From positions 36,270,001-36,334,000 of the forward strand of contig CM060733.1 in assembly GCA_030704615.1 (NCBI GenBank): DNA of 64,000 nt, written 5' to 3'. The notes under the pieces were generated by a model. The model was not told the origin of the DNA. It worked only from the letters and a program-made list of their open reading frames with translations, and ran no database searches. Source of the DNA: Takakia lepidozioides. Taxonomy: Eukaryota; Plantae; Bryophyta. A program made the translations under genes and the position numbers. Position 1 is the first letter of the stretch; every line of letters begins with the position of its first letter. Shown one piece after another: positions 19,010 to 64,000 of the stretch.

Positions 19010-20460
19010 ACAGCATAGATTTCCTTAATTTTGGGATGCAACTTGTCATCTACAACGAAGGTGTGCACCCTGTTGCCAACCTCAATGCAGAAGCAACCTG
19101 GCTCCTTTTCTAAACCCTCTAACCTTCATCATTTTCTCACCTTTGCAGTATCATCCCACCTACCAGCTGCAGCATAGATGTTTGATAACAACACATAAGT
19201 CGCGACATCCTGTTCATCCAACTTGAGGATAGATGTTGTCGCACGTTCAGCCATCTCCACATTGCCATGGATTCTGCAGGCACCAAGCAAGGCCTTCCAC
19301 ACCACAACATCTGGATTGATTGGCATTTTATTAATCGGGTCCACTGCCTCATCCAATTGTCCCGCACGTCCAAGAAGGTCCACCATGCAGCCAAAGTGCT
19401 TTACTATCGGAGTAACACCATGATCTTGACTCAGGGAATCGAAGTAGCGTCTTCCTTCATTCAGTAGGCCAGTGTGGTTGCATGAAGAGAGAACACATAT
19501 AAAGGTGATATTGTCCGGCTTCAAGCCGTTCTTTTACATTCCTTCAAATAGTTGCAGGACCTCCCTATGACAACCATGCTGGGCATATCCTGCGATCATC
19601 GCATTCCACGACACCACATTTCGTTCAGTCACATTGTCAAATACTCCCTTTGCATCCTCAATGCATCCACATTTCGCATACATGTCCACCAAGGCAATGT
19701 CTAGAATGACATTTGGTACAATGCCAGCTTTGAGGATGTCACCATGCACCTCTTTGCCCTTTTCCAGGGCTGCCAGGCTTGCACAAGCATTGCAAACTCA
19801 CACAACTGTGATGTTGTTGCGCTTCACCCCTTCCCCCATCATTTCTCATAGGCCTCCAAGTCCTCCTGCCCACGCCCCTGCTATGCATATCCTGCAAGCA
19901 TGGCGTTCCATGACACCAAATCTCGTTCAGCCATATTGTTGAACACTCCCTCCGCATCCTCAATGCTCCCACATTTGGCATACATGTCCACGAGGGTATC
20001 GTCCATAATCACATTTGGTACAATTCCAGCTTTGGCGATGCAACCATGCACCTCTTTGCTCTTTTCCAGGGCTGCTAGGCTTGCACACACACTGCAAACA
20101 CACACAAACGTGATGTGCTCGGGCTTCACCCCTTCCCCCATCATTTGCTCATAGGTCTCCAAAGCCTCCATCCCACGCCCCTGCTGTGCATACCCTGCAA
20201 GCATCGCGTTCCACAACATCACATCTTGTTCAGCCATAGTGTTGAAAACTCCCTTCGCATCCTTAATGCACCCACATTTCGCATACATGTCCACCAGGGC
20301 AGTGTTCAAGATGACATCTGGTACAAATCCAGCTTTGACAATGTCACCATGGACCTCTTTCCCCTTTTCCAGAGCTCCCAGGCTTGCACACGCATTGCAA
20401 ATGCAAACAAACGTTATGCGGTGGGGCTTCACCTCTTCGCACATCAATATCTCATAGAAC
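19010..20460 (-). pseudogene. PLS-class PPR gene with E/E+ domain, disrupted
   Basis: Several P-L-S triplets across shifted frames. The E domain (HFGCMVDLLGRAG, VVWKALLGACRIHGN, YVLLSNIYAAAGRW) is followed by TGA TGA and then KEPGCFCIEVGNRVHTFVVDD. No DYW domain is seen. Confidence 0.9.
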
Positions 20461-21470
20461 ATCCTCTCAATCTGAGAAAATACCATGCAAAGTGAGGTCC
20501 GCAACAAAAAATACTGGTGAAATCTCCATTCAAAGATTCTCCAATTCGGTTCGTAGATCGACAGGATCCGAGTCATCAAATGCAAGGATTGCTGGCATGG
20601 ATGGGATACATTCAGAAACATCATTCAAAAGACAAAGACAAGCATGTTGTTGTAGAGGCAATGGCTCTGGATCCTGGAAACGACAGCGCTAGGCTTCTTA
20701 CAGCTATGCACGACGTGAACAAGTAAGTCATCCTAGAGACTCCACTGCCTCTCCAATGTCTTGTTGATCCCACCAAATAATGATTTTTTCCAATGCATTG
20801 TTTCCAATCTTTTTGCAGATCGACAGAGAAATCGCATGTGACAACAAGCTTGGTCCACACACTGTTCCGAATTTAGAGGATTGGTCTGATGAAGCTGGAT
20901 GATTTTCGCACAGTACTCCACCCGGATAATCAAGAAGTGCGAAACAGGAAGAGCTGCAGGCACTTGGTATTCTTTGACTCGAGAGGCATTTCTGGAGTAC
21001 ATGTATGCGGTAAGGCCGAGCCTGTACTCACTTGCCACTCTGGGGGTGGTGTATATACATATATACATATAAATATAAAAATACATATATATATATATAT
21101 ATACAATATATAAATTAACCCATGGGAGGAGGCGGGGAGGAGCTGCGAGACGACTCCCAACGGTCGTCTCGACCTTTCCGAAGCTTGTTTCTGACCCTGC
21201 TCAACCCCGTAGCCACTGCAGATCACTCTAGGCATCCCCACCCCATGCGCAGATCTCATTTGATATACTTTTTAAGTTTTTCCATAGTTTTTTCAAGATT
21301 AGTTCCTTCAGTTGTTCATCCTTTCAACCCTCGTCCTTTCATCGCTCGCATAGTTACACGCATCATCCCTAATCGGACAGCGTCGTCTCTAACTTAAGGG
21401 ATGCATAGTACTAAACAAGGTAGAGCACAATCTTGAAGTAGGCCCTTCTTTTTGCCCTACATCACATCAG

Positions 21471-26121: not shown

Positions 26122-27336
26122 TTGGCGCACCTGACATTGTTATTTTCACGACAGATCGCGGTGGGCTCATCTTTCTCGAGTTGAGCCTCACTGCGTCTAG
26201 CTATGGCGCCGTAGTGTGGATTTCCCATGGCGTGGGGTACACTTGGCTCGACTTAATATATGAGTGATGTTTTCATGTGCAAGTATATGAGTTTGAGAGA
26301 GTCTGTGTGCTTATATCATTCATTTTCCTTATCATTGTGATGGGCTAGTGGCAGCCTAGTGATGGACTAGTGGCTGCACTAGTGGTGGCTAGTGGCAGCC
26401 TAGTGGTGGACTAGTGGCTGCACTAGTGGTGGCTAGTGGCAGCCTAGTGGTTGGACTAGTGGTGGCTAGTGGCAGCCTAGTGGTTGGACTAGTGGTGGCT
26501 AGTGGCTGCCTAGTGTTGGACTAGTGGCTGCACTAGTGGTGGCTAATGGCAGCCTAGTGGTGGACTAGTGGTTGCACTAGTGGCAAGACTAGTGGTGCAC
26601 TAGTGGTGGATTAGTTATAGACTAGTGTTTGGTGTGCACATGTGTTGTGTGGTTTTGGACAGCGATGTAGTTGTGTAGCGATATGTATGCGCACGACAGC
26701 TGTCAAGTTATTTTACCACTAGTGTGAAGTTAGCTAGGAAATAACTAGTTCTTATATATTGACATTTGGGATTGACCCAAATGTCAATCCAGGGACTAAT
26801 ACATGTTTGGGCACCTGACGTTGTTATCTTCACGACAGATCGTGGTGGGCTCATCTTTCTCGAGTTGAGCCTCACCGCGTCTAGCTATGGCGCCGTAGTA
26901 TGGATTCCCCATGGCGTGGGGTGCACTTGGCTCGACTTAATATATGAGTGATGTTTTCATGTGCAAGTATGTGAGTTTGAGAGAGCTTGTGTGCTTGTAT
27001 CATTCATTTTCCTTATCATTGTGATGGGTGGCAGCCTAGTGATGGACTAGTGGCTGCACTAGTGGTGGCTAGTGGCAGCCTAGTGGTTGGACTAGTGGCT
27101 GCACTAGTAGTGGCTAGTGGCAGCCTAGTGTTGGACTAGTGGTTGCACTAGTGGTGGCTAGTGGCAGCCTAGTGTTGGACTAGTGGCTGCATTAGTGGTG
27201 GACTAGTGGTTACACTAGTGGCAGGACTAGCGGTGCACTAGTGGTGGACTAGTTATAGACTAGTGTTTGGTGTGCACATGTGTTGTGTGGTTTTGGACAT
27301 CGATGTAGTTGTGTAGCGATATGTATGCGCACGACA
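26122..27336 (+). mobile_element. Terminal repeats of a second split-repeat retroelement: partial A (~26122-26334) -t- B (26336-26698) -gc- A (26701-27018) -t- B (27020-27336)
   Basis: Same TGTCAAG start of A, GACA|GC|TGTC junction, ggctcatctttctcgagttgagcc hairpin, CTAG-rich B and terminal CGACA as the 49872-57231 element. Confidence 0.9.
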
Positions 27337-27344
27337 ACTTAGAT

Positions 27345-38714: not shown

Positions 38715-40263
38715 TTACCCACGAGCGAGGCGTGCTAGACTTTCACGATACTCAATAATTTGACCACGCAGAATGTGATTTGGCCGTAGGGTTTTGTCCA
38801 CGCCCGTTCCATTCCCACCTGGTGGGGGTGGCAATACTTCACCGGTTATGGGGCTCGTATCATGAGTCCTGAAAAGAAGTCAGATCCAAGATTAGCATAA
38901 ACATGTTGTTTTATTTGCCTGTCTTGATATTGGGATAGTCCACTGTCAAGAGGTCTCAACAGGAAGAGACCAACATTTCCACAACCACAAAAAGGACAAA
39001 GTAGCAATGTTGTACTTTGGGATTTCCTTCCTTGGAAGTGGTAAGGTCTTCATCTAAGTTCACTTGCAATTTCCAGCTTTTCTAAAGACGGTGGCACATT
39101 AATACAAGGCAGAGCAATTACACTCGTGGATTTGCATGTTACCAGATATTCATCTGTGGTTACACCCTGATGTGTTGTTTCAAAAGCTTTCCATTAGGAC
39201 AATGCTTAATATGTGAAGCATTATCCAAATTCATCACATACACATACACACAAATATCTTTCTTTTCATTACCTTAAGCTTTAACTATGTACACTAGACT
39301 TGCCATAGACTTGTTGCCATAGACCCCATCATCAACAAGCAAAAAAGAGAAAAGAGTGGGAGAGAGAACGAGATCACACAGAAAGGGAGGGTAAGGAAAG
39401 GTACGGAACTGGAGCCAGCGTAGAATCGCAGATCGCTCGTAGGAGTGACCATCGGCTGTAATAACTGGGTCCCTCATCACCTCCTGTGTGATGCAATCGA
39501 CAAATTCAGGAGGAACATGGGGCTGCTGCTGCAGCGCATCACTGTCATCCCAGATCCGCAGCGCCGACTCAAATGCCGACTGATCTGACCACAGGCTATG
39601 GCTGCTCAATGACAACGGGGCAGTGCAGCTCAAAAGATCACTGTCCAAAGTTCCCGTATGTTGCAGATGTGGTGAGAACAAGCAAGTAGGCAATTGAGTC
39701 TCAATTGAGACTGCGCTACTTGGACTCGCATCCTTGGATGCTGTTTCCAGTATTTCGGACCCCAGCGGAACCATCCAGGGTAGGGGATTCGAGTTGACAT
39801 TCAAAGTGGGGAGCTGAATCTGGTCCAGCTGTGGGGCATCCCACATTTTCCACTTTCCCTCACCAGAAATGGCCTCCTGCCCGTGGAATTCCAGTCCTCC
39901 AAGGCCTTGGCCCCTACCCCCAGAATTTGCCTCATCTCCCCAGGGCTCCAGAGTCTTTGGCAATTGATCTTTTGGCAAGGAATAATCTTGCAACGACCCC
40001 AAACCTGGAGCATGGATTGGTGGTTGCGGTGCAATAGGAACCATATTCCCCAGGTAATTGCTGACAGGAAGCCCTTGCCCAAACAATGTGTCAAAGGCAC
40101 CCTCTCCTGCATGCTCGATCAGGTCTCTATCCCCCAATGAAGGCTGGCTGTCCGTGACAGCACCTACAGCCAAAGAATTAGAGAATGGATGGGTGCCCCA
40201 TGATCTTGTCGGTGCCTCCACCACCTGCATTTCTCCAAGCATTCCCTGGTCATATTGCTGCAT
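38715..40263 (-). CDS. U-box domain protein (exons ~40263-39410 and 38868-38715)
   Basis: VPPEFVDCITQEVMRDPVITADGHSYERSAILRWLQ splices (CA|gt...ag|G) to THDTSPITGEVL...LRPNHILRGQIIEY. The 5' and 3' limits are uncertain. Confidence 0.85.
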
Positions 40264-41394
40264 GAGGTAGCTACTCTCTCGCTCTTAGGGCCTCCCCAGA
40301 TCGAATAACCGCAGCAGAAATTGACTTCTTCAGGGTCTCGCCTCCATGGCAGAGGCCTTTAGCTATGAAGACCTGAAGTAGGGACCTCCTTCTATGAGGC
40401 AGTACACCTTCATGCCACACTTCATTATTTCTTTGGCTTTGTCTTAGTGGTTCTGTTTCAGTTTTGCGTAACTTGGGCCCTGTAGGCCTCCTGTAGACAT
40501 AATGACTTCCGTTTTGCGTTCTTTCTTTCCTCTCTCAAAAAAGAGTGACGACCCTCAAAGTAGGAAAAGATAGCCACTAGTCAAATCTGTTGCAGCCCAT
40601 CCTCGAGGATTACAACTTGAATAACTCTCATGCTCTCCAGCACGTTGGCAATGCCAGCCATAAACCAACAATGTAATAGGACTGCCCTTGTCTCTGCTAA
40701 GGACATCGTGGGCTGAATCTCAGTTCCATCCGAGACTCAAAGAAGACAGCAGCAGTTCTATTTCACACGGTGGGTAGCAGGAACAGAGACAGTCATGTAC
40801 TGAACTTCCAATTCATGAAAAACACCAACCTCAGTGGTGCAGCCTGCAGAGCCTACTCAACACATTCTCTGATCAGTGCAATCAAACCTTAGCCATGAAT
40901 GGCATGGTGAACCAGAATAATGGTAGCTGGATTCTGATATGGCAGCTGTCCAGGAAGATTTGCTGCAAAGTCTTCACAAAGTCTTCATCTACCATATGTG
41001 ACCCAGACCACTGATTCCCTGAACCCCTGAAATTGCATTTGGGATTTCATGGACATTTCGACAGACTTATGTCGGCTCTTATATACCCACACAGCTGAGC
41101 CAAATTTCACGCTCTGCCTACATGGAAAGGGGGAGAACCGTGGCCTTGTGGCCATAGACCCTGAGGGAACGACACTACATTTGTGAGAGGCTCACTACAA
41201 GTGAGACCTACCTTGATATAACCAATGGACAGGGAGAGAGAGAGAGAGAGAGAAAGAGATTGCAAGGAGGCACAAGTAAAGGAACTGGAAAAGGAGCTAA
41301 AGAGAAGCCAACAGAGGATGTTGGAGACAAACTACAAACTCGCATGGAACCCTGCTAAACCAGAAGTAGGGTATTAAAAACCCTAGTAAAGAAC

Positions 41395-43314
41395 TTAGGG
41401 TACCTGTGAACAGAAGAAATAAACTGGATGAAAATCCAGGACAAGGAAACCAACCCAACCTTGACCTACTTCTGAAGGCCTGCATTGAAATGGACAATGG
41501 TTTTCTGTAAGACATAATCCATCAGAGTAACGCTTAGAACTACTTACAGGAGTGGGAGAAGGCTCGGAGTCATTGCTGCCATTCATCAACTGTTTTCCTC
41601 CAGTCCATTGCCCTCTTTCTGAGTGACCATTACTGGAGTTTATTTGGGAGGCAATGTTGTTGGGGAGAATTTGAGTTGAATCAGAGCTTTTATCTGCTAT
41701 TGGTGCCGAAAAACCTTTGCCCCAGACCTTGTTCCATGGCATTCGGTTCCATGCAGAGTAAGAACTATCTGAATGCTTTGCATTCCTTCCTCCATTCATG
41801 CTAGAGATGGGGCTTGTTGGTATCGACCCCACAGAGGTAGTGACTCCTTTGCTGGGTTTCACCCCCGTTGTCAAGCTCTTACCCCAAAAAGATGATGAGT
41901 TTGTCATGTGAGGCTTGGAAGCTGCCACAGCACTACCCTTAGCAGTACTGCGTGCCTTTAAAGCTCCTGCAATCTTCACCTCACTACCCCTTCCACCCAA
42001 GTCCATCCTAGAAGCCTTGCCAACCTTCTTGACTGAATCACCAGAATTAGCTGGACTTGAAAGACTCTTCAATCCATCCACCTTCTTCTCACTATCCTTA
42101 CCTTTACTGTCTCTCTTCTTGAGATCCTTCTTTGACTCCTCCGAGTCCTCTGTATCACGGGAAGCCCTCTCCTTCCCAAATTCTCGCTCTTTTTCTCTCA
42201 TCTTTTCTTGCCGCCGCCTCTCCACTTCTCGCTCTCGTCGCAGCTCTCTCTCCCTCTCGGCAGCTGCCTCCCGCTCGCTTTCCCTTTCTGCCTCCATCTT
42301 CTCATCGCGAAGACGTCGTCGTTCCTCAACTAATCGAGCCACTTCCTCTCTCTGTCTGCGCTCTTCGGCCTCCAATTGCTCTCTCTCAAATCGAGCTTGT
42401 CGTTTCTCTTCTGCCTTCCTTCTTGCCTTCTCTCCCCTACTTCCTTCTTTGCTTCCTCCATCTTCTCCCCTTCGCTGGCCCCCTCTCCGACCTCCATTCA
42501 AGGGGTCTTCCCTTACCCTCTCTCTTCTCCAGACCTTGTGCCATAGCCATCTCAGGCATGCAAAGACCAAAAAGACCATTCTAAATAGAAGAGACTGGGA
42601 AGAGTCTCCTGACCCACATTTCTCTTTACTAAAATTCCCTCCACCTCCATAGCTGCCACCACCGTAACCCCCTCCACCGCTTCCCCAGTATGGAGACCAG
42701 GAAACGTAAGTACCCTCCCTCAACGAAGTCCTGGAATTGGTCCAGCCCCGGCCAGCCCCAACAGAAGAAGGGGGGTTCATTCGCTCAGGCCATCCCCGAC
42801 CTCCCCACAATCCCCTACTATCGCTCCTAGCCCTAAAGATCCCACTAGGAGAATGATGACCTCCAGATTGAGCTAACCCACCCGGAATTCCAGCTCCATT
42901 AGGCCCTCCGGGTACATCCAACACAGGCCGTCTTGACACATGACCGCAATAGGTACACATAAACTTACCACCTCCAGGAGTCTGATCCCGATAGGCTGAA
43001 AGGCAGTTCCGGCAACGTCGAGTAGCCTCTTTCCGCCATTTGGCAGCCTCCTGCGCTTCAATTCTTCTTCTCTCTCTCAGGAAGGCACTCCTTCGAGCTC
43101 GCCACAGTGACAGTCGGGGCATTGCCAGCTCATACCACCCCAGGCTAACCAGTAGCACACCAACACAAGCAAGCCTAGGAGAGGTCACTTCAAATCGAAA
43201 TCCAGGCGGCAATAGCTGAGAGAGAGCCCACAATATTATGAGAGGAATTATGAGCCACGGCAGCATCGTCACGATACGGCGCGACCACCTTGATGCCACA
43301 CACAGAATGCACAT
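41395..43314 (-). CDS. Conserved plant protein like Arabidopsis At3g51640/At3g51650 ('NST1-like'): N-terminal transmembrane segments, CxxC zinc ribbon, charged coiled coil
   Basis: MCILCV..WSRR..TMLPWLIIPL..LWALSQLLPP.FRFEVTSPRLACV; RRCRNCL..YRDQ.PGGGKFMCTYCGHVS.RPVLD. The 3' end is probably spliced near 41470. Confidence 0.85.
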   Translation of the reverse strand: MCILCVASRWSRRIVTMLPWLIIPLIILWALSQLLPPGFRFEVTSPRLACVGVLLVSLGWYELAMPRLSLWRARRSAFLRERRRIEAQEAAKWRKEATRRCRNCLSAYRDQTPGGGKFMCTYCGHVSRRPVLDVPGGPNGAGIPGGLAQSGGHHSPSGIFRARSDSRGLWGGRGWPERMNPPSSVGAGRGWTNSRTSLREGTYVSWSPYWGSGGGGYGGGSYGGGGNFSKEKCGSGDSSQSLLFRMVFLVFACLRWLWHKVWRRERVREDPLNGGRRGGQRRGEDGGSKEGSRGEKARRKAEEKRQARFEREQLEAEERRQREEVARLVEERRRLRDEKMEAERESEREAAAERERELRREREVERRRQEKMREKEREFGKERASRDTEDSEESKKDLKKRDSKGKDSEKKVDGLKSLSSPANSGDSVKKVGKASRMDLGGRGSEVKIAGALKARSTAKGSAVAASKPHMTNSSSFWGKSLTTGVKPSKGVTTSVGSIPTSPISSMNGGRNAKHSDSSYSAWNRMPWNKVWGKGFSAPIADKSSDSTQILPNNIASQINSSNGHSERGQWTGGKQLMNGSNDSEPSPTPVSSSKRYSDGLCLTENHCPFQCRPSEVGQGWVGFLVLDFHPVYFFCSQVP

Positions 43315-45039
43315 TCTGCAGATTCTACTCCTACCCTTACCCTTCACCCCTTGTCTTCTCCTATTTGTCTTCTCCTAAAGCTCAATCTTGCGAATGGGAC
43401 GAGGTTAGCTGTGACAGAGCTATGCCGCTTCCTTGATCAAATCCACCACCAACTAGCAAGGGTTGCATTCTGCTTGCTCTACCCCAGCAGGCCGTGTGAA
43501 ACAAGTAAACGGTAATATGCATCAATCAATCTCTTGTCTGCTCCTCCACTCTTCCTCCCTTTCTGCAGCCCTATCTATAGTTTCACCTCCAACCCCTCCT
43601 TGTTCTCCTCGTCTCTTCCTTGTGCGACTCTCATATGCCCCCGAATGCCCGCCTTCTTCTTTCTCCTCCCTCTCCCCCCAACCCTCTCTGCTCCGCACTC
43701 ACAACTGCCACGCCCTCCCTCTTCTCACACCCTGCGATTGCTCCTTATATTCCCGTTGCTCTATACCTAAATCTCTTCACCTTCTCCAACCATGTCTGTC
43801 CTCCCGGGAGATCACATCAAGCCACGGGCTCCGTCGCCATCCCTGCCAAAGGGTTTCGCGTAGCCTCACAGTATGTGCCAGCCATGGCCCTCTCTCTCTC
43901 CCTCTCCCTCTCCCTCTCCCTCCCTCTCTCTCGCTCTCCTTCCTCTGTGTGCGTGTTCGAACTTCGCTGCAACCTCCTCTTTTTTTTTCTGTTTTTTGTT
44001 GGCTTCTCTTTATTCTAAAGAGGCCCAGACTACGCATCAGTGCCAAAAATGGCTAAGCCCCTGTTGTGCCTTCCCCAGGTGTCACCTCATCTCCTTTGCT
44101 GAAAACTACTTCCTATCAGTGTTTTTTAAGAAATTTGGAAACAGCACGAGTGGCTACAGAGTTTTGCAGAAAATAGCGGTATATTCTGTTCATCCACTTA
44201 AATTCAACCACCTCTGTGCCATAATCCATTTGTATCATCCATATTTGGCAAATTCATCCATAATTTATTTTTTTATTTGGAGAAATTTGGCGATTTCATC
44301 CACGAAAACACAGGGATTTGCGACAGAATATTCAGTTTTATTTTTTGAGGTCGAAATCTGGCGAAAATTCGCCAATAAAAAAAACGCTGCTTCCTATGCC
44401 TCCAGGTAGCACCTTAAGTAACATCTCTCTTATTGAACAATTTATGAAGAATAAATTGTTGATTTTCTCAAGTTTATTATGGATGAGAATAGATTTTGCT
44501 ATTTGACAAAGAGGAGCCATAAGCGACTAGCCGCTTGTTTTTTTATTAAGGGACACCTCTCCTCTTCCTCTCGAGTCCAGGCTCTTCTTCTTTGTTGCTT
44601 GGCTTTTCTTGTTTTTTTTTTTGTCCTTTGTTTGGACTACCTAGGGAAAAAGATTTTTTTAAGCGGAATAATTTCTTAAAGTTGGAATGTTACAGGCTTA
44701 CTGACTTGTAAGGCGGGCGGCTCGAGTCCCAACTCTATTTTTTAATCATTATTTTATCCTTTTATCCTTTTATCCTTTATTTTATCCTTTATGTTTATTA
44801 TTTTATTATTTTGTCCTTCCGAAAAAAAAAAAAAAAGGGCTCATTGTCTTGTACCTTTCCCTTGGTGGTACTAAGTGATGAAAAAGTGACCATACATGAA
44901 CAAGTGACCAAGCTTTTATGAGGTTTATGGATGACAGTAGTTCTCCTTCCCAAGCCAAAAACAAAAAACAAAAAGAAATGACTCTCTAACTTACACCATG
45001 GAGTCGGTTGTTCAGGGCATCCCCCTGTTCTCCAAAATT

Positions 45040-47730: not shown

Positions 47731-50700
47731 GCCCATCCTTTGGTGTTTGAAGACATTGTCGCAGTGGACGTATAAGAAAGCTTTCTGGTTGGGCGTCGAC
47801 GGCCGCTGCCATATACACTGCAGTATCCCTTCGCGCACTCAAAAGCACCTGCAATACGATCTGGAAAAGTGGAAGCGAAGGACGACAACATGCACGTTCT
47901 TGGCAGGACGGAAGCGCGTTGGCAGGAACAGACCAAAGGGAGGAAAAGACCGATGAAACAGTCTTCGCCCACGATTGGCGGCGGCTGCCATGCCCTAAAT
48001 CCGGGCGGCTACGATAGCAGCGCGGTATCACGGTGAGATAGGCGCCACATCATATGGGGTGCGTTTGGGTCTGCTGGATCGGGTTGCTTGGCGGCAGACC
48101 CCAGCAGCGGGTAGACCGAGCATGGGCAGACCCACTGGGGACCCGATGGCGGGCGGACCCAGCGGCGAGGGCGGGGGCCGCGGTCCGGGAGCGGGCTGGG
48201 CGGTGTGCGGGCAGGGCCGCGGGCAGGTGGGGGTGGTCGGGGCGGGGGAGGGCGACCCCGCGTCCGTGCGGGCGTGCGCGCCCTGTCCTACACGCGCGAC
48301 ATAAACTCCCAATTATTCAAAAATGAGAGATTAGGCAACTGGAATTGGGATATACGAAAAACTGACAATTTGTCCATTTCTACATTGGGTCATTTGGTCA
48401 GTTCTTAAGTTTATTTTGATTTTGATAATTTTTTTAATTTTTTTTGTTTTCTAACCTCAATCAATATGACACTCAAATTATAAAAATGATATATTCAAAA
48501 TCAATAGTTCGACAATGACTTTTTTATTTCTACAATAGGTCTAACCAATCTGGTTTTTTGGTTTTTACAATTTTTATATTGTTAAAACATAAATGCACAT
48601 CCAAGTTGAAAATGGGACATACTGAAAAAATCAGCTTATGAAAATCTTGTAAATTTCAAGATTTGTTTCTTTTTATCATTTAAAAAAAATTGTATTGGCC
48701 ACCCTACCTACCAGCTAGGCATGGTCTTACCTACCCGGGTTGATATCAATATTGATACCTTGGTTGGACCTATATACAACACTGGTCTCTACGTGTTATT
48801 TGTATCTGTTGTGAGTTGTGAGTGAGAGATAAGGAGCCTCTTTGGGACTTAAGCGCATTCAGCGACAACCTAAGAGTGATTGATCACCATAGATTTCATC
48901 CAAATCCAACAGCAACGGCCTCACCCCATAGCACGTCGTGCCTCTTACATTGTGCGTTGTATATCAGACACGTCCATAGGACAACGGATATCGCACAAGG
49001 CAGATAAGTGGCATTACAACCCACCATAGGAGCAGTCGGCTATAGTTGACGTACGATTTTTTGCCACCAAGGCTTAACTGCAAGTGCCGAAACTTGTTGG
49101 AAATCACATTGGAGATGTACTTGGATACATAGGAAATTGCACTTGGTCTTAGAATTCAATTCTTCCCACATGGGTCAACGGCATAGGCTACACTAGAGGT
49201 CGCACTTGGGCCTTGACATACGAGACGCATCGGGATATATAGGAAATTGCACCTGGTCTTTATAGAATTCAATTCTTCACACATGGGCCAGCGGCACAAG
49301 CTACCCTAGCGGTCGCACTTGGGCCTCAACATAGGAGACGCACTTAGATACATAGGAGATTGTACTTGGGCTGTCTTCACGAGGTTGTTGGAGGAAGGTC
49401 GTGAGGACATGATGGTTAATGTGAATACCTAGGCACTGTCACATAATACATTTAGCTTCACACTTGGGAAAACAACAGAAGCTAACCTAGTTACAATATT
49501 TTTTAACAGAAAAATTCATATGACACGTAGTTTTTAAAGATCTATCGTGTTTTTATTTAAAATTTAAATTATACATAGATATTAAATCATTTTTTCCGCC
49601 TAATAATTCCAAATGAATTTAAGTTCAGGGCCTCAGTTAGTCCCCTGTTCATTTTTTATTAAAAAAACATATAAAAAAAAGGAGGAAAAAATCTTTTGTC
49701 GACAGCCGAAGTAGCTATGTTGTCAATCAAAAGGAAATAAAATGTTGAACTTTTTTAGCATTGTTATCAGTAATAGTCACTAGTAGTGCAGAACATCACG
49801 CAGCCCTAGTACTATTTCTAGCTACGATGATTGAAGGTCGGAAGCTAGTTTAGCGTAGAGCAGGAATAGGGTGTCAAGTTATTTTACCACTAGTGTGAAA
49901 CTAGCTAGGAAACAGCTAGCTTTTACATATTGACATTTGGGATTGGCCCAAGTGTCAATCCAGGGGTCAAGGCAGATTTAGGCCCTGGAGTGGTTATCTT
50001 CACGGCAAGCGCGGGAGGCTCATCTTTCTCGAGTTGAGCCTCACCGCGCCTAGCTATGGCGCCGTAGTGTGGATTCCCCATGGCGTGGGGTGCACTTGGC
50101 TTGACTTGTATTTGAGTGATGAGGTTATATATGCATGAGTTTATGCTTCAGATTTGTGAGCTCGTGCTTGTATTCTTCTTCTTTATCACTCGAGAAAGAT
50201 GAGCTCGTATCTGTGAGTGCCAGATACGAGTTAGTTGTAGCACTTGTGGTTTTTGCTTGAGAATGAGAGAAACCAAGTTGTTATGTAAGGAGCACCGTGG
50301 AGCTCTTGGTTGTTAGAAGCGGAGGCGATGTGGGTTACGAGGTGGTAGACCTTGGCATTCGATCTTCATCTTTAGAGATGAAAGCACCATGCTGCAGGTA
50401 ATTCCAGAGCACCTTGATGGTTTCAGATTGTGTACATGCATGAGCAAGCACGATTGGGAAGAGGACCAGTCAAGAGCATGTTATAGTGGCTTTGGTGGCA
50501 AAGCTGAGAACTGGACTTGGGAATGCGAGCTTTCATTGTGTGAAGGATTGCAAGACCAAGCGAAAGGGTTGATTTGGCTTGGGGCAAATCAGTGCACTTT
50601 GTGGAGTATGGTGAGATTGGGTTTCAATCTCGAGCTTCAGCATTGAGAGGGCTCTTGTCATGGCAAGAGCAGGGCTGGAACAGGAGCTAAGAGATGCGGC

Positions 50701-51718
50701 AAGGCCATGGAATGTGCACCTAGGGTTTCAGAGCTTGGAAGAAGAGCTCTTGCACCACAAGAGAAGTGTCTTGTGGCTGGAAATGTAAGCCTTAGGGTTT
50801 CAGGAGCTTGGCAAAGGCTGTGGAGTGCTTAGTCTTGTCTTAGAGAGCATCAAGGAGCGAAGGAGCCAAGATAGGGGGCTGATATCTCTTGTGTGAAGAG
50901 GTTGCATGTGTGGAGCATGTATTCAGCTCATTGAAGTTTCCATCTTCAAGCTTGGAGGGCAAGCAAGGAAGAGGGAAGGGCTGACTTCCCTTATGTGAGG
51001 GCAATGCATGTGTGGAGCATGCTATCAGCCTGGTGAAGGCTTGCACTTTCAGGTGTAGGAGTGCAAGAAAGGAAGAAAGGGGCTGGTTTCTTTGTAGGGC
51101 ATGTGGAGCATGCTTTTAGCCTGCTGAAGCTTGTATTTTCAGGTTTGTGGGTGCAAGAAATGAAGCAAAGGAGCTGATTCTCTTATGGTGAGAGTGGGGC
51201 ATGTGTGGAGCATGCCTTCGGCCCATTGAGGCTCTTGTTTTCAAGCTTTAGAGAGCTAGAACGGAAGGTCTAGGGCTGGTTTCCACTTGGAGTGAAAGAA
51301 AAGCACTTGTAGGGCCTATGTGAGTTGGGGTTTCAACTTCAAGCTTGAAGGGAGCGCAACTCTTGAAGCAGTAGGTGTAGGGGGCTGGAATAGGCTCTAA
51401 GACAGATGCTATGGCCAAGGAGAGTGCTTGAATGAGTGCTCACAAGGGCTGGGAACCAGCAGGGCTTGGTTGTTTGCCATTGAGTTTAGTGGCGTGTTTG
51501 GGGAGGCTAAGTGAGAAAGAAGGCTTTGTTTGTGGCAACCACCTCATGGCTTAGGGCTACTATGGTGGTGTGTGGGAGCCGAAAGAGTAAGAATACCTTG
51601 CTGATTTCCTCCACAGCCGCCATAGCTCGGTGGAAAGAAGCCTAGAGTCCAAGAGACACAAACCCTAGCTTGGAGTGGCTAAACCCCTTGGAGAAATGGC
51701 TAAATTGCCAGAGCGGCC

Positions 51719-52800
51719 ATGGATGGGGCTGTGACGGGCCAACAACGGGCGGATGTGGTGTGCTGGACATGTAGAGGACCCCATGTCAAGAAGGATTGCC
51801 CAGAGGGAGGCAAAGGGCTGGCACATGCACAGCCTGCACAGTTGCAGTGTGGGCATTCTGGCAAGCACGGGCATGGAGAGGCCCAGTGTTATGGTTTGCA
51901 TCCTGAGTTGCGCCCAGGCCAGTTCCAAGGGAACAATGGTGGCCGGGGGCAAGGTGGAGCAGCCCAGAGAGGACGAGGTGGCCAGCCACAAGGTGCAGGC
52001 CAATGGCAATCTCAACATGGCCAAGGACGCGGAGGTCAGGGGGTTGACCAAGGCATGGCCAACCGGCTTCAGCAGCTAGAGCAGAGGCTCGCTGCCATGG
52101 CTACAGCTCAGGTGGTACCGGCTCTAAGGCCGGATGGTCCACCTCCTGCTCCTGAGGGAGGAGATATGGGAGGTATGGGATTCATGTGTGGAGCAGCACT
52201 ACCACTAGTGCAGGTGGAGTCTGCTGCAGCCGTGACTCAAGGAGCAGCACGAGTTCCTGAGCCACGAGGTGCAGAGGTGGAGTTGGATCCACAGCGTGGG
52301 GAGGCAAGCTGTCAGGCTAGGCTTCCTCAGTCATTCATATTGGCGGAGACAGTGTCGACGCCATCCATGGCACCTAGTTCTCGCCCGACTGTTACCGAGG
52401 CGGAGGTTACTATGTCATTGGGGAGAGCTACACGGGTAGCACCACTACCTAGTATTGCCAAGGCTACGGCAGCTAATGTGCTGCTAGGAGCGGCCACACC
52501 TGTGTGCCAGGCTCCATTGTTCTCGGCTACCATGATTGCGACGCCGGGGGTAAGACCAGCTGAGGTGTTCAGGCTGGCAGCTACACTCTGTGAGAGTGGG
52601 AAGGTTACTTCATCTTCTACGGAGATAGTGGGAGGTGTAGTGCCGGAGGGATCCTCGGATTTGAGGGTCAAGACTGCCACGGCGGCGCCATGACAAGCTG
52701 CAGCTGCCAGGTTGATGGAGCTGCCAGCTAGGCCAGCCATTGAGCGCGCCATGGTGACACCTGGAGTTGTCATGTTAGACAACCAGGATGACATTTCTGT
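51719..52800 (+). pseudogene. Gag C-terminus with two zinc-knuckle-like motifs and a linker
   Basis: CWTCRGPHVKKDC and CGHSGKHGHGEAQC, followed by a G/Q/R-rich tract; TGA at 52691 and a 1-nt frameshift near 52795. Confidence 0.7.
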
Positions 52801-53230
52801 TTGAGTGGACCAGCAGGCAAGAGGTACCGGCCACTGCGGGTCTTGTTGGACTCGGGAGTTCAGCCATTGATGCTAGGCAGAGCTGCTATTGCAGGCTTGG
52901 GCCTCACGGAGGCGGATATGGAGCCTTGTCCTTTCCAGATACAGACGTCTCTGGGAGGATCGGAGCAGACTTGGGGCATGACACGGCATGAGTTGGCTAT
53001 CAGACTACGGCCGGATCATCCTACAGATGGCTCAGTGATGTGAGCCAAGGCCATTGTGACAGACGCAGTCTCATACGATGTCCTGGTTGGTGGGGAAGTG
53101 TTGTACCCCATGGGCTTCACCCTGGATTTTTGGGAGGAGTCAGCTTCCTATAGGCCTGCATGGCAGTCAAGGGAGGGCCAACGTGTGCAGCTCCCTGTGA
53201 CGTTCATAGGAGGAGTTGCGGTTGCCCAGT
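52801..53230 (+). pseudogene. Retroelement aspartic protease
   Basis: LRVLLDSGVQPLML and SYDVLVGGEVLYPMGF; in-frame TGA at 53041. Confidence 0.8.
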
Positions 53231-53559
53231 GAGGCAAGATGCCGACACTAGCAGCATTCACAGTGGCAGTGAGTTGGCCTAGAGAGTTGCTTGAGAGCAA
53301 CGCTCATTCAGAGGATGTGCCACCTCCGGGAGAGCAGGATGACATGTATGGTATGGCGGAGTTGCCTACCATGGTTGCTCAGACTCCATTGTGGGGCACG
53401 AGCAATGATTTGCAGCGGGATGCTGATCGACGGGTGCAACAAGACTGGGTGGAGGCTTTTGTACCGTCAGGAGAGGAGGAGAGTGCGGGGATTGCACCAG
53501 GACCACCTCAGTTGTCTCCATTGGACACCACACCTATTGTGTGGCAGTATCCGGATGAA

Positions 53560-54500
53560 GGCATTTGTCTTCTGGACTTGTTTGGCGGGATCAACATCGG
53601 ATTGGCTGTTGTGTTACAGGCAGGTGTACGAGTTCGGCGTTACCTGTATGTGGAGGGGGATAAGACTGCACAACGCGTTTCACTTCGCCATGTTGCTCAG
53701 TTGGTGCAGCGGTACCCTGAGTTGTTGTCGGTGTCTGCAATTCATGGATATCAGCAGGCCTTGCCAGCAGACATTTCGTTGCTGGGGGCGCAAGATTTGG
53801 AGCGGGTTGGCTCCATTGATCTAGTAGTGGCAGGTTGGCCCTGCCAAGGGCATTCATCGGCCGGGCATGGCAATGGATTGCGAGACTCGAGGTCGGGTCT
53901 GTTTTGGGAGATGGTGCGGGTTTTGCGCCACTTGCAGCTTCATCAAGCTGTATCTCCAGCATACATCTTGGAGAATGTGCCACTGATGGGCGATTCTCGG
54001 GCCAGGGTGATGGCCAGTGTGCATCAAGTCCGGTCGTGGCTTGGGTCAGCAGTGTTGCTAAATGCAGCTATAGTGGGGTCACGGGCTCATCGTCCACGGC
54101 TATGGTGGACTAACTTGATGCCACCCGCACTGCTCAAGCGTGCATTTGATGGGGTGCAGCGGCCAGCACATCTCACAGTGGATAGCATTCTGGACACAAG
54201 GAGGCAGTCTCAATGTGTGAGACACGATGACCGTTCGCCTTTGGCAATGGTCAACAAGGTGGGTCAACCACGAGCAGCATTACCTACACTGCTCAGCTTC
54301 CCAGGATCGCATGCTTTCCGGGATAGTGGACCTGGCCTCCTATGGGATGCTCAGTTGTAGTAGTTAGTGGAGCCTAATGCTGACAAGCGTGAGCAGGCAA
54401 TGGGTTTTACCACTGGTACCACGGCGGTGTCGTCTCTTTCTGAGGCATCACGTCGTCAAGTGTTGGGGCAAGCAATGGATCTCATTTGCTTGACCTGGAT
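53560..54500 (+). pseudogene. C5 cytosine DNA methyltransferase domain (DNMT3-like) inside pol
   Basis: Motif I LDLFGGINIG, IV GWPCQGHS (53839-53847), VI ENV (53971-53979), VIII RAHRPRLWW, IX/X REQAMGF...SRRQVLGQAM. Same frame as the protease; TAG TAG at 54358-54363. Confidence 0.92.
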
Positions 54501-54859
54501 TATCAGCTTGGCTATGGCTGAGCAACGCAGAGTGCGGAGTACACTTCCCTCGATGGTCTATCTGCCTACCGAGACGATACATGCAGTGAGTGGGGGCGAG
54601 CATGTGAGGACCACGGGGTGCATGCATCCATGGCACACGTGGGAGGTGCTCGAGGTTCAGAGGGAGTTGGCAGCCAAGGCGGCTGTGATGGATGAGGTTG
54701 GGGATTCTTCTCGGGTTGAGGAGGTCCTCAAGGATGAGATGATGGGGTAGGATGAGGCCTTGTCATTGATTGAGCAGGTAGGGAGTACTGCTCAAGAGGT
54801 TGCGGCATAGCAACCACCGGACGTGTCCTCTACCTCTAAGTCTGCTGGACTTAAGGTTG

Positions 54860-56274
54860 CAGTTACGAAGGGCAATTGGGAGCCTGACGTTGGACCTATT
54901 GTCACTAGAGGAGAGAGACGACGTATACGGCGGTTCCTGAGGCTTACAGGAATTGCTTTGCCTCTCGTGCTACGGTGGATGAGCATGAGAAACATGTTTA
55001 GGTTGTGCATCGGGTTTGGTCAATAGGGATGCGGATGGATTGCGTCGCAATCCATGCACGAGCCAGCAGGATGACACTGGAGCTCGGTGGCATGGTGAGA
55101 CGGACGAGGAGATGGTGCCGGGATGGCATGCATCTGCCTTTTTGTGCATCTTGGCATCGGGAGGTCAGGTTGGACCTACAACAGGGATGACTGTAGACGG
55201 AGTGTTTGAGGACCCTAAGGCTAGTGATGAGCCAGGTGGTGCCAAAGATATACATGAGGATTTGGCTGTGTTGGACTACCTCCGCACGGGAGACACGGCA
55301 GCCACTGTGACTGCCAAGGAGAGGGATCGGATCCTGCAACAAGAGGTTCAAGTGGGAGGGGATACACCTACTTCGAGTGTGGGAGGATGGTCGGGTGAGG
55401 ATTGTGCCTCACCCCACACAGCGTGCACGGTTAGTGCGGCATGCCCATGAGGAGTTGGGGCATTTTGGAGTGCGACGCACTCACAGTTTACTGCAAGGGC
55501 AGTATTGGTGGCTTGGCAGAGAGAGTTGTTTAGACGGTGAAGAGGGGTTTGCGCAAGTATGGCTTGCAGAAGGGACACCTATGAGATTGGGATCTTCAGG
55601 TTCCTTGGTTAGCCATGGGCTACAAGTTCAGCAAACAAGCATCACTTGCCTCCTTCTCACCATATTTCCTTCTCTTTGACCGAGAGCCGGATTTGCCTGT
55701 AGCCATTCGTAGGGACACTGCTCAAGTCCTTAACCTTGACGATCCGGACGTGTGGGTACATGCATGTGATCAGCGTGCAGAGTTGTTCAAGAAAGTCATG
55801 CCCATGGCTTTTGAGAACCTTGCCATTGCACAGCACCGTGATACGTTGAGGTATGCCACTATACGTGGTGGAGGATATCGTCCTGGGGTTCGGAGGTTTA
55901 GCCCTGGTGACTATGTTTATTTGCAGCAGACTGCTCCTACGACTCTGGATGTTACTGCAGGGCGTGTTATTCTGAGGGTTCAAGAGGTGTTGCCCTCAGG
56001 AGTCCTGATCTTGGAGGGTCGGGATGGCATGACTTGGAAAGACCATGTGCGTAATTGTGCGCCATGTCACCTTCCCAATGTCGATGGCAGAGTTGACCCA
56101 AACTTGGCAGTGGTACCTGCAGGTTTGAGGTGCATGCTCTGTGGGTCTGCCAAAGAGGCAGCCACCATGCTGGTGTGTGATCGATGCTCAAGGGGTTGGC
56201 ATATGGGATGCTTGACACCACCTCTTGAGAAGGTTCCTGACGTAGATTGGTTGTGTCCACACTGCTTGGGATAG
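54860..56274 (+). pseudogene. RT/RNase H scraps and integrase (zinc-binding region, GPY/F-like tail) with C-terminal PHD finger
   Basis: TVDEHEKHV (RT scrap), VNRDADGL.R (RNase H end), HAHEELGHFGVRRT..LLQGQYWW, FSPYFLLFDREP, FSPGDYVYL and CMLC...VCDRCSRGWHMGCLTPPL..VP..DWLCPHC. The RT and integrase catalytic cores are deleted. Confidence 0.85.
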
Positions 56275-57532
56275 TGGCAGTGGACATGACTGGAGGCAAC
56301 TAATAAGACATGGGAGGCCAAGCTCATAGAAGTCAATACATGAGATCCCAAGCTCAAGTTCACAGGTTGCAAGACGGCGACTAATGATGGGGCAACTCTT
56401 GCACCCGGCCTCTTGATCTATCGAGTTTGAGTGTAGTAGGGACAGTGGTGGAGGACTTAGTGAGGCTATGGTCACTATCACATCTTGTGGCTACCTGGAC
56501 TTAGAGGGACCTAAGCACCAGCTAGGGGGGCGATTGTGTGGACTAGTGACTGCCATAGTGGGCAGCATAGTGGCAGCCTAGTGACTGACTAGTTGTAGCC
56601 TAGTGGTTGGACTAGTGGCTGGACTAGTGGCTGGACTAATGATATACTAGTGTGTGGCGTGCACATGTGTTGTGTGGTTTTGTACAACGATGTAGTTGTG
56701 TAGCGATACGTATGTGCACGACAGCTGTCAAGTTATTTTACCACTAGTGTGAAACTAGCTAGGAAATAGCTAGCTTTTACATATTGACATTTGGGATTGG
56801 CCCAAGTGTCAATCCAGGGGTCAAGGCAGATTTAGGCCCTGGAGTGGTTATCTTCACGGCAAGCGCGGGAGGCTCATCTTTCTCGAGTTGAGCCTCACCG
56901 CGCCTAGCTATGGCGCCGTAGTGTGGATTCCCCATGGCGTGGGGTGCACTTGGCTTGACTTGTATTTGAGTAAAGAGGTTATATATGCATGAGTTTATGC
57001 TTCAGATTTGTGAGCTCGTACTTGTATTCTTCTTCTTTATCATTGTGTGGACTAGTGACTGCCATAGTGGGCAACATAGTGGCAGCCTAGTGACTGACTA
57101 GTTGTAGCCTAGTGGTTGGACTAGTGGCTAGACTAGTGGTGGACTAGTGATATACTAGTGTGTGGCGTGCACATGTGTTGTGTGGTTTTGTACAGCGATG
57201 TAGTTGTGTAGCGATACGTATGTGCACGACAAGGGTGCCATAGTGCCACGTCTTCGTCACCATGTCATCGTCGCCACGTTTCGTAACCACGTTTCGTCGT
57301 CAAATTCTTTGGAATCTGCCCGGACTGCCCGCCCGAAATATTCCAATAGAAATCGTCACGCCAACTTTTTCGGAACTGCCCGCAATGCCCAAATCTTGAT
57401 CTTTGATCTTGGTCTGCGTTTTTTGCCATTGTTCATCTTGCAAGCTGCAAGCTCTCAACGAATTAAGGAAATCCATGCTGAGTTTTTGAATACATGTTTG
57501 TAATTTGTTTTTACTCATCCCTGCTTTGATCA

Positions 57533-59813: not shown

Positions 59814-60290
59814 TGTCAAGTTAAATAAGCACAGTGTGAAAACAGCTAGAATAAAACTAGTTATTTGTATTTAACACTTGGATTTAGGTCAAGTGTTAAA
59901 TCAGGTGTCAAGTTTAGTTTGACACCTGGTCCGTCTTATCTTCACGAGAGCGGCAGTCGCGCGGCTCATCTTTCTCGAGTTGAGCCTGCGCGACCAAGCT
60001 CCTGCATGCGGTTAGATTTGAGTGTGCTTATGTAGGGGTACAGGTTGTTGTGGGGTGGAGTCCCCATAGCTTGGGGTGCCCCTGGCTCGACTACTATTTC
60101 TAAGAGTGATGGTTTGGTTTTCATGTTTTGTGTAAACAGTGTGTTCGTTGGTTTTCTATCACTCGAGAAAGATGATCTCTTACCTGTGAGTGCAAGGTAG
60201 GAGTTGAGGGTTAGCACTTGCAAGATTACCTGTGTGAAAGTAGTGCTTAGTTTGAGAAGCATATCATTGAATGTGATCACAAGATTCAGC
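59814..60290 (+). mobile_element. 5' end (A repeat 59814-60161 plus PBS) of a third, diverged split-repeat retroelement
   Basis: Starts TGTCAAGTT with no B upstream; invariant ggctcatctttctcgagttgagcc; A ends tatca and is followed by ctcgagaaagatga. Confidence 0.85.
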
Positions 60291-63094: not shown

Positions 63095-63478
63095 AGCATA
63101 GTGGCAGTCTTGACCCTCAAATCCGAGGATCCCTCTGCCACTACACCTTCCACTAACTCCGTAGAAGATGAAATGACCTCCCCACTCTCACAGAGTGTTG
63201 CTGCTAGTCTGAACACTGCAGCTGGCCTTACCCCCGGCGTTGCAATCATTGTGGCCGAGAACAGTGGGGCCTGACACACAGAGGTGGCTGCCCCAAATAA
63301 CACACCGGCCGCACTAGCCTTGGCAGCATGAGTCAATGTTGCACGTGTAGCTCTCCCCAATGGCATAGTAACCTCCGCCTCGGTAACAGTCGGGCGAGAA
63401 CTAGGTGCCATGGATGGCGTCGATACAGTCTCCGCCAATGTGAATGACTGAGAAAGCCTCGCCTGACGGCTTGCCTGG
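63095..63478 (-). mobile_element. Inverted gag-protease linker fragment of the same retroelement family
   Basis: AETVSTPSMAPSSRPTVTEAEVTM...GSSDLRVKTAT is near-identical to 52300-52685. Confidence 0.9.
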
Positions 63479-63599: not shown

Positions 63600-64000
63600 C
63601 CTTAGACTGCAACAGGTGCCCACCCGTGTCACTATTAGATTAGTACTAGAGCCTTATAGTGTCACGTGGAGGAGGTGCACATTGTGAGTGTCATTACGGA
63701 GTTACCCAAGGGTTTTGAAGGGAGTACGGCTACAAGCAGTAACAGTGAGAGTGGGTTCACAAGACGAGGTATTCGGTTCAGACCACCTTCACCGCCACCC
63801 TCAATTACTGTAGAGTCAGACACAGACTCGGAGGCTTCATCAACAGGTGTGCACTTTCATTCGCCATTGTTGTGGGACGACATGGAGGAGATGTATGGAG
63901 CTACCAAGGGGCCTCGTAGGTACTCTGGAGCTGTGGGCACAATCGAGTTGGATGACTTTATCCAGGAGTTTGACAGCTGCTGTGATTTGCAGCAGATGCG
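63600..64000 (+). mobile_element. Probable gypsy gag N-terminal region, running off the window end
   Basis: KGPRRYSGAVGTIELDDFIQEFDS resembles the gag P..FSG...F motif. Confidence 0.45.

Follow-up and report, generated by a model that had tools for sequence, protein, structure and literature searches.

The 64,000-nucleotide stretch of the Takakia lepidozioides genome analysed here (assembly GCA_030704615.1, contig CM060733.1, positions 36,270,001 to 36,334,000; hereafter the window) contains, at 49872-57231, a dead copy of a Ty3/gypsy retrotransposon flanked by the 4-bp target-site duplication (TSD) AGGG (49868..49871 and, identical, 57232..57235). Between its aspartic protease (PR) and its reverse transcriptase (RT) the element encodes a DNA methyltransferase (DNMT) of the DNMT3 type, and comparisons of related sequences indicate that this DNMT is a fixed domain of the element polyprotein under purifying selection.

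All stranded features of this copy lie on the forward (+) strand. The 3' remnant of gag with its CCHC knuckles (51746-51910) occupies 51737..52690; about 3.3 kb upstream of it, including the capsid part, are deleted relative to another copy of the family (L035). The protease follows at 52795..53214 (LLDSG, with LDSG at 52846) and reaches 95% to its L035 counterpart; its Pfam match to Asp_protease_2 (E 0.016) is below the cut-off. The DNMT domain extends over 53545..54534, with two stops in this copy (54358 and 54361), and an in-frame TAG followed by CAACCA (54808..54816) marks the boundary between Gag-PR-DNMT and the region of RT, RNase H (RH), integrase (IN) and a PHD finger. Remnants of the RT start and the RNase H end (54811..55057, ~1.3 kb deleted) precede the zinc-binding and C-terminal parts of the integrase (55238..56109; PF17921, E 1.8e-8), from which ~0.4 kb of the core is deleted at 55509-55516. 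The PHD finger closing the second open reading frame (ORF2) lies at 56110..56271 (PF00628, E 5.4e-11); its nearest solved relatives are the PHD fingers of CHD4 and KDM5B.

Six stops occur in 52801-54810 (53041, 53230, 54358, 54361, 54748 and 54808), of which all but 54808 were not found in copies with long frames. No frameshift lies within this interval, the 1-nt gaps against another copy being placed just outside it at 52793 and 54940. A preliminary description of the locus had recognised protease and C5 methyltransferase here in one frame interrupted by point stops only. The frame with both domains is borne out and five of the stops are indeed decay, but the TAG at 54808-54810 is conserved across copies and stands in a readthrough context, and is therefore neither decay nor a point mutation. 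That description had mentioned neither the split repeats at the termini, with their implications for integration, nor the PHD finger at the C-terminus.

An abundant family with a DNMT3-type domain

The window copy belongs to a family that is abundant and recently spreading. In the 326 Mb of genome searched, the DNMT query returned 3,701 candidates, and all 144 that were scored are 91-100% identical. Searching with 24 exact nucleotides from the DNMT-RT boundary gave 1,235 matches (none for the reversed control), which puts the copy number at 1,235 at least. More divergent subfamilies descend to 72% DNMT identity. In a search of the genome with PF00145, the 30 loci fetched out of 123 scored were all element DNMTs (72-95% identity), and host methyltransferase exons were found neither in a DUF3444 search nor in nine flanking stretches.

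Ten copies were fetched for their architecture, picked for long frames. In all ten, ORF1 encodes Gag-PR-DNMT in 1,391-1,411 codons and ends at the same TAG; ORF2 (RT-RH-IN-PHD) follows in frame and is present with its full 1,044 codons in five. Pfam searches of two copies (L035, L039) recover the Gag-PR-RT-RH-IN order of Ty3/gypsy elements, with an rve integrase at E 1.7e-13 and with Gag and PR below the curated cut-offs, their CCHC and DSG motifs being present. The same searches gave no match to a tyrosine recombinase in ORF1 or ORF2, none to a chromodomain, and no DNA-targeting module beside the DNMT. A second subfamily (L039:1217-2035; L043, L045) has an additional frame of 273-279 codons upstream of ORF1, for which Pfam gave no match in L039; the window subfamily carries an array of ~50-nt tandem units in its place.

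The C5 methyltransferase motifs of the window copy are complete and non-permuted (LFGG 53578, GWPCQ 53833, ENV 53971, RPR 54091, LGQAMD 54463). The preliminary description had listed a full set, which stands in its canonical order, except that motif I reads FGGI..G and not FGG.G; the profile search it had proposed returned PF00145 with 51 bits (E 1.7e-13; cut-off 22 bits). All six motifs are found in 28 of 30 copies. Among solved structures the best relative by sequence is DNMT3A (E 8e-8), followed by M.HhaI (3e-4) and DRM2 (9e-3). An AlphaFold2 model of the L035 domain (pLDDT 95.4, from a 48-row alignment) retrieves DNMT3A, B and C as best Foldseek matches, led by DNMT3A with E 4e-20 and TM 0.73/0.85. 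On this predicted structure the domain has the DNMT3 fold, not that of DNMT2, in agreement with its earlier designation as DNMT3-like; its lack of introns and the non-permuted motifs show that it is not a DRM. The catalytic cysteine C101 and the arginines R184 and R186 are kept in at least 90% of the 48 aligned homologues, and E144 of ENV is invariant. Variants of motifs IV and VI (ECQ, ENT, ENA) are common in distant relatives. An Atlas search returned generic PF00145 clusters only.

Purifying selection is evident between subfamilies, where dN/dS is 0.18-0.22 for the DNMT and 0.13-0.14 for the RT. Against four metagenome relatives, with 69-73% identity in the DNMT, 74-78% in the RT and 57-59% in the PR, the DNMT yields 0.05-0.08 at saturated dS. 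The long-frame copies and the dN/dS near 0.2 answer what the preliminary description had asked for in evidence against a one-off capture: the domain is present in all ten such copies, is selected, and co-descends with the RT, as set out below.

Descent of the domain and the conserved stop

Named relatives of the DNMT, 59-77% identical over the aligned part, occur in Marchantia polymorpha, M. paleacea, Calypogeia, Riccia and Sphagnum, where one degraded model has 50% identity; domains of Closterium and Chromochloris are 32-41% identical. A second architecture, RT-RH-DNMT-IN-PHD, is shown by 63 of the 68 proteins in which both domains are present, and clusters with the Chromochloris sequence. 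Proteins P0035-P0075 and others form a large unnamed group with the DNMT between RNase H and integrase, which implies that the domain either moved within Pol or was gained twice. Trees (a quick tree and FastTree; the second group entered as a random sample of 22 of 63 rows) split the two architectures alike for DNMT and RT, with one row excepted. Distances in the two trees correlate with a Spearman coefficient of 0.96 in the PR-DNMT-RT group (18 rows) and 0.23 in the second group (22 rows). On these sequence comparisons, the DNMT module is inherited together with the RT across bryophytes and algae. An in-frame DNMT was present in 26 of 118 new ORF2 homologues, most of the others starting at the RT.

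No named DNMT of Klebsormidium nitens was among the homologues returned by the searches. Three RTs from K. nitens are placed outside this family's clade, the deep nodes being weakly supported. Named RT-IN proteins of that alga share 43-47% identity with ORF2 and are not the sister group of the family. A distant metagenome clade (L103-L140) has the same ends and lacks a stop between DNMT and RT; in one member (L109) motif IV is ECQ and motif VI ENT. A further gypsy-type protein (P0450) combines a PHD finger before the integrase with a precomputed match to PF05869, which we take to be the Dam adenine methylase. It resembles the elements described as DAM-LTRs in the available text of a preprint (bioRxiv 10.64898/2026.05.21.726589).

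The stop that ends ORF1 is itself conserved. TAG-CAA-CCA is found in 30 of 30 loci from the DNMT query and in the ten long-frame copies, and TAG in 1,167 of the 1,235 genome-wide matches of the stop flanks; the first 100 of these listed comprise 96 TAG, 2 TAA and 2 sense codons. This sequence conforms to UAG-CARYYA, given in the accessible part of PMC5382211 as the type I readthrough context of tobacco mosaic virus (TMV). In L035 and L039, ORF2 has no methionine before residue 86, which lies within the RT. Near metagenome relatives (at least 49% DNMT identity; 44 of 80 loci) were scorable in 30 cases: 27 have TAG or TAA followed by CAR, 15 or 22 codons before the RT, two have another stop and one has none, with 14 loci unscorable. 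The remaining 36 of the 80 loci are distant (36-43% DNMT identity, eight unscorable); 19 of their 28 scorable members have no stop within 40 codons before the RT and nine have unrelated stops. The interchange of TAA and TAG, in which TAA removes the AG, favours a stop over a splice acceptor, and splicing around the stop is accordingly disfavoured. In the Marchantia proteins P0001 and P0002 and in most members of the 50-53% group, the chain terminates 70-130 residues downstream of the DNMT. Contigs matching the element also occur in one data set that may be RNA, but may be DNA.

Since the conserved stop separates Gag-PR-DNMT from RT-RH-IN-PHD, the DNMT would belong to the abundant Gag-side product and, judging from the sequences, is likely produced, and packed into particles, in larger amounts than RT and integrase. 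Its designation as a pol domain between protease and RT in the preliminary description is therefore right as to position, and the DNMT is no passenger gene, but it lies on the Gag side of the stop.

Split terminal repeats and the proposed route of integration

The termini of the element follow the layout A…B-GC-A-B, without two complete co-linear long terminal repeats (LTRs) as in Ty3/gypsy. Repeat A1 forms the 5' end (49872..50187, beginning TGTCAAG; 98.7% identity with A2) and repeat B1 lies at 56533..56723 (terminating CACGACA; 97.4% identity with B2). It meets A2 (56726..57041) in the junction GACA-GC-TGTC (56719..56730, unstranded), which contains a 10-bp palindrome at 56720-56729 and is the predicted integrase cut site. 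B2 (57042..57231) forms the 3' end, and the A2/B2 joint at 57041/57042 is a predicted end-joining scar. The few differences between the repeats (4 of 317 positions for A, 5 of 190 for B) indicate a young insertion, of roughly 1 million years if usual plant rates are applied. TG…CA termini with a 4-bp TSD were found in the window copy and in seven of the ten long copies, the other three having no callable end; in five metagenome elements the TSDs match in three, mismatch in one and are not callable in one.

A segment of A1 (50018..50034) is an exact 17-nt reverse complement of the sequence directly after A1 (50188..50204), and the two are predicted to act as self-primer and primer-binding site, as in Tf1-type self-priming, where the primer site is complementary to the element's own LTR (PMC6317226, as far as accessible). 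Pairing of 13-19 nt was found in all eight copies from this genome that were tested, L039 having a compensated change, and of 15-17 nt in four of seven metagenome relatives of different sequence, against a control maximum of 9-10; it is weak or absent in the remaining three (L101, L114, L072). The polypurine tract (PPT), recognised by its sequence at 56523..56532, directly precedes B1, ~190 nt before the TG end, and does not adjoin the 3' attachment end. Of 40 sampled 3' ends, 24 have it in the equivalent place, the 16 without a PPT match being dropped. The 24 retained comprise 18 of B-GC-A types and six called automatically as B only; on visual inspection, three of these six are full ends that carry mutations.

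The two joints of the repeats behave differently. The spacer of B-GC-A is 2 nt in all of the 100 listed of 1,070 matches (91 GC, 5 AC, 4 GT), and the junction persists in metagenome relatives down to ~40% DNMT identity. At the A/B joint, where A is the modal spacer, 18 of the 100 listed of 416 matches differ from it, 17 of them in length. Inserts there include remnants of the PPT (GA three times, GCGA, GGGGCGA) and one of the primer side (ACTA). We interpret this variation as that expected of a joint made anew from cDNA tips, while a PPT before B1 and a primer site after A1 place B first at the cDNA ends. One copy (L153) is an alternative cut product, A|B-GC-A…B, with the TSD GCAC on both sides; another candidate (L154) could not be traced as far as its 3' end, and a rearranged copy (L155) and a tandem one (L156) proved unusable as further cases. 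Three copies end at B1 (L163, L186, L194; L163 with the TSD GTTT), a layout that B1-B2 recombination could produce and that is not counted as support. Tandem B-GC-A runs were seen at G000:C1:25000605-25001474 (two A/B joints) and C1:62299118-62300715 (four A/B joints), and could have arisen by several rounds of end-joining or by unequal crossing over.

Starting from the observed domain order, conserved stop, purifying selection, co-descent with the RT, split repeats, TSDs and junction variation, we propose that a DNMT made at Gag level methylates the new cDNA, whose end-joined circle is then opened by the integrase. We assign this overall reading a probability of roughly 0.55; its parts differ in strength. 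Very probably, a few per cent of ribosomes would read through UAG-CAA-CCA to yield RT-RH-IN-PHD. With similarly high confidence, the RNA would prime itself in the manner of Tf1 and plus strands would start from the PPT ahead of B1, so that the linear product would be [B-GC-A]-body-[B-GC-A], without attachment sites at its tips. The TG/CA attachment sites would sit inside the repeats as the palindrome GACA-GC-TGTC. It is probable, if less firmly so, that the tips are then joined into a circle or head-to-tail concatemer, and that the integrase cuts CA^GC^TG and inserts the product with a 4-bp TSD as A…B-GC-A|B. A cut at the 5' palindrome would produce the observed layout, and a cut at the other A|B-GC-A…B. 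Retroviral integrase is able to cut a palindromic circle junction (PMC1180852, in its accessible part). The step we hold with only slightly better than even confidence is that the DNMT adds 5-methylcytosine, probably at CG, to the cDNA before insertion, which would then arrive marked like host DNA. We propose it because the Gag fusion would bring the enzyme to the cDNA, because a joined intermediate would mean time outside the chromosome, and because a related enzyme methylates CG in yeast: the DNMT3s of Symbiodinium DIRS elements showed de novo CG methylation there (available text of PMC5890265).

Several observations weigh against this proposal. A symmetric circle predicts equal cut products, but exact patterns of the standard and the alternative layout number 370 and 4, a bias that is unexplained; of the four alternative matches, only two have the A|B-GC-A start, and only for one could identical TSDs be established. 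Nor do all relatives have the stop: stop plus CAR occurs in none of the 28 scorable distant loci, and in the proteins P0033 and P0034 DNMT and RT are fused without a stop. In many relatives CAACCC fails the last base of CARYYA, an in-frame ATG then being present at which re-initiation is possible. Many of the metagenome contigs are repeat assemblies from few data sets and are not independent. According to the accessible part of PMC5890265, the Klebsormidium homologue gave no methylation in yeast, a result its authors regard as inconclusive. Finally, the C-to-T excess per 1,000 (3.6 at CG, 2.4 at CHG and 0.85 at CHH, with A/T transitions at 0.33) fits ordinary host silencing and is not assignable to the element's DNMT.

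Alternatively, the enzyme may act in trans on chromosomes, at sister copies or at the insertion site, damping the family or shaping chromatin together with the PHD finger. Gag-level expression would supply much enzyme for this, the copies carry a CG and CHG methylation footprint, the PHD finger resembles those reading histone H3, and a self-limiting role is raised in the available text of PMC5890265. We nevertheless consider it unlikely: fusion to Gag and PR would put the enzyme into the particle with the cDNA at hand, the PHD finger is on ORF2 and unjoined to the DNMT in the major product, and the Pfam searches gave no DNA-targeting module beside the DNMT.

The repeat structure could also be copied from RNA in the fashion of DIRS or Ngaro elements, with the integrase using linear ends regenerated from the B1-A2 template. 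The repeat layout of the Klebsormidium element is called DIRS-like in a figure legend (Fig. 4 of PMC5890265, a source accessible in part), and the bias of 370 to 4 is unlike the prediction of a symmetric circle. Yet an A/B joint copied from a template should not acquire PPT and primer remnants copy by copy, the positions of PPT and primer site define B-first cDNA ends, and the A|B-GC-A…B copy with its TSD is unexpected; we give this route about one chance in five.

Less probable still is that the domain is retained not as a catalyst but to bind cDNA, palindrome or genomic RNA as a structural part of the particle, or that it methylates RNA. The inactivity of the Klebsormidium domain in yeast (PMC5890265, as above), the ECQ, ENT and ENA variants of distant relatives and a Gag-like stoichiometry would suit such a role, but the catalytic cysteine, the ENV glutamate and the arginines of RxR are conserved in at least 90% of the 48 homologues, and the predicted fold is that of DNMT3, not of DNMT2. 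A recent neutral capture of a host DNMT3 in this lineage, suggested by cellular DNMT3s being the best solved matches, is excluded as a one-off event by purifying selection (dN/dS ~0.2 or less) and the congruence of DNMT and RT trees, and is further made highly improbable by the intronless domain, the 59-77% kin in Marchantia, Calypogeia, Riccia and Sphagnum and the 32-41% kin in Closterium and Chromochloris.

Methylation of the cDNA followed by opening of a joined intermediate admits a stronger version, which we regard as doubtful: that an end-joined cDNA circle is the obligatory integration substrate of a green-lineage Ty3/gypsy clade, with the DNMT as the protective half of a pair resembling restriction-modification. 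Here the DNMT would methylate the CG/CHG-bearing palindrome that becomes double-stranded first, and the integrase would cut the other one. If true, this would account for the preference, 370 to 4, for the layout in which the 3' repeats required in a further round are retained, and also for CACGACA-GC-TGTCA being conserved.

The function of retrotransposon DNMTs was left open in the accessible text of PMC5890265, which treats the Klebsormidium case as a lineage-specific acquisition in few copies. As Marchantia, a tractable model, harbours close relatives, this question can now be put to the test. The position of the stop, which puts the DNMT at Gag level, suggests that the enzyme is used in quantity inside particles. 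The genome keeps hundreds of putative end-joining scars, pointing to joined cDNA as a normal integrase substrate, a route long debated for retroviruses. Bryophyte annotations count too many DNMT genes because of such elements, which, having no pair of co-linear LTRs, are likely overlooked by standard LTR finders.

Elsewhere in the window, a second family member starts at 59814 (primer site near 60163) and runs beyond the window end at 64000. It contains PR, DNMT, TAG-CAACCA, RT, RH, IN, PHD and B-GC-A-B ends, with flanks AAAG/GAAG, and its part 63101-63476 is inverted relative to the first copy. A body-less repeat cluster at 26139-27337 consists of partial A, B, a GC junction at ~26699, A, and B ending at ~27336, with B carrying expanded 11-nt units. 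Host-type frames on the reverse strand (39277-43374 and 19884-20624) comprise part of a U-box protein, a 659-codon frame whose look-alikes are uncharacterised streptophyte proteins, and a PPR frame in 302-bp repeats.

Comparison with known systems

Retrotransposon-borne DNMTs, as the preliminary description correctly stated, were reported by de Mendoza et al. 2018 (PMC5890265, here and below in its accessible parts), and KnitGypsy-Dnmt3, acquired in the lineage of K. nitens and bearing DIRS-like repeats, is the closest precedent. That genome has 33 DNA_methylase genes in all (PMC5890265 supplement). Such elements are named again in the available text of bioRxiv 10.64898/2026.05.21.726589 and, as LTR elements, in PMC12344493, equally accessible in part; both assign them to "streptophytes" without further detail. 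The present family shares with KnitGypsy-Dnmt3 the Gypsy domains, an intronless, non-permuted DNMT3-type domain with its key residues, purifying selection near 0.2 (a criterion of Ka/Ks < 0.2 there, 0.18-0.22 between subfamilies here) and, compared by the description in the legend, a DIRS-like repeat layout. It differs in its land-plant host and at least 1,235 copies, and in that the DNMT, placed "in the Pol ORF" in KnitGypsy-Dnmt3, here ends ORF1 before the conserved stop. The distant metagenome clade is the more similar in this respect, with the DNMT in the RT-bearing frame and no stop in 19 of 28 loci. Judging by its features, the family probably belongs to the same broad group. The accessible main text of PMC5890265 does not contain the term PHD and its sections 9-11 hold no model of Gypsy replication or integration; "Marchantia", "Sphagnum" and "stop codon" are absent from its readable supplements.

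A DNMT3-type domain in a retrotransposon polyprotein, with cDNA methylation proposed, is likewise known from SymbioDIRS-Dnmt3, whose CG activity was seen in yeast. DIRS elements use a tyrosine recombinase. Unlike SymbioDIRS-Dnmt3, this family has a DDE integrase and 4-bp TSDs. With Tf1/Sushi and Tcn1 it shares a primer site, here a predicted one, complementary to its own repeat instead of a tRNA (accessible part of PMC6317226); these are chromoviruses, and the family differs from them in its PHD finger, DNMT and split repeats and in having no chromodomain match. A PHD in a Gypsy polyprotein is mentioned in the available part of the Chlamydomonas v6 preprint; the REXdb main text does not mention PHD, methyltransferase or Marchantia.

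The predicted readthrough site has the exact UAG-CAA-CCA of TMV type I readthrough, upstream of the polymerase in both (PMC5382211, in part), with the difference that the stop stands here after PR and DNMT and not after Gag alone. No description of land-plant members, of readthrough or of the integration route was found in titles and abstract openings, a range outside which most subscription papers lie, and the supplementary trees of PMC12344493 and bioRxiv 10.64898/2026.05.21.726589 could include bryophyte sequences.

In retroviral 2-LTR circles the palindrome is the end-to-end joint, and the circle route is a debated side path. The predicted cut by the integrase at a palindrome of two joined attachment sites is like the cleavage of such circles in foamy virus and HIV-1 (accessible part of PMC1180852; see also PMC1905944 and PMC4372172). 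In the present family the palindrome is instead encoded in the genome inside the repeat, the predicted true joint lying elsewhere, and the joined-cDNA route appears to be the normal one. Elements of this kind are known from KnitGypsy-Dnmt3 of Klebsormidium, while the land-plant members, the conserved stop and the integration route suggested by these copies are candidate novelties.

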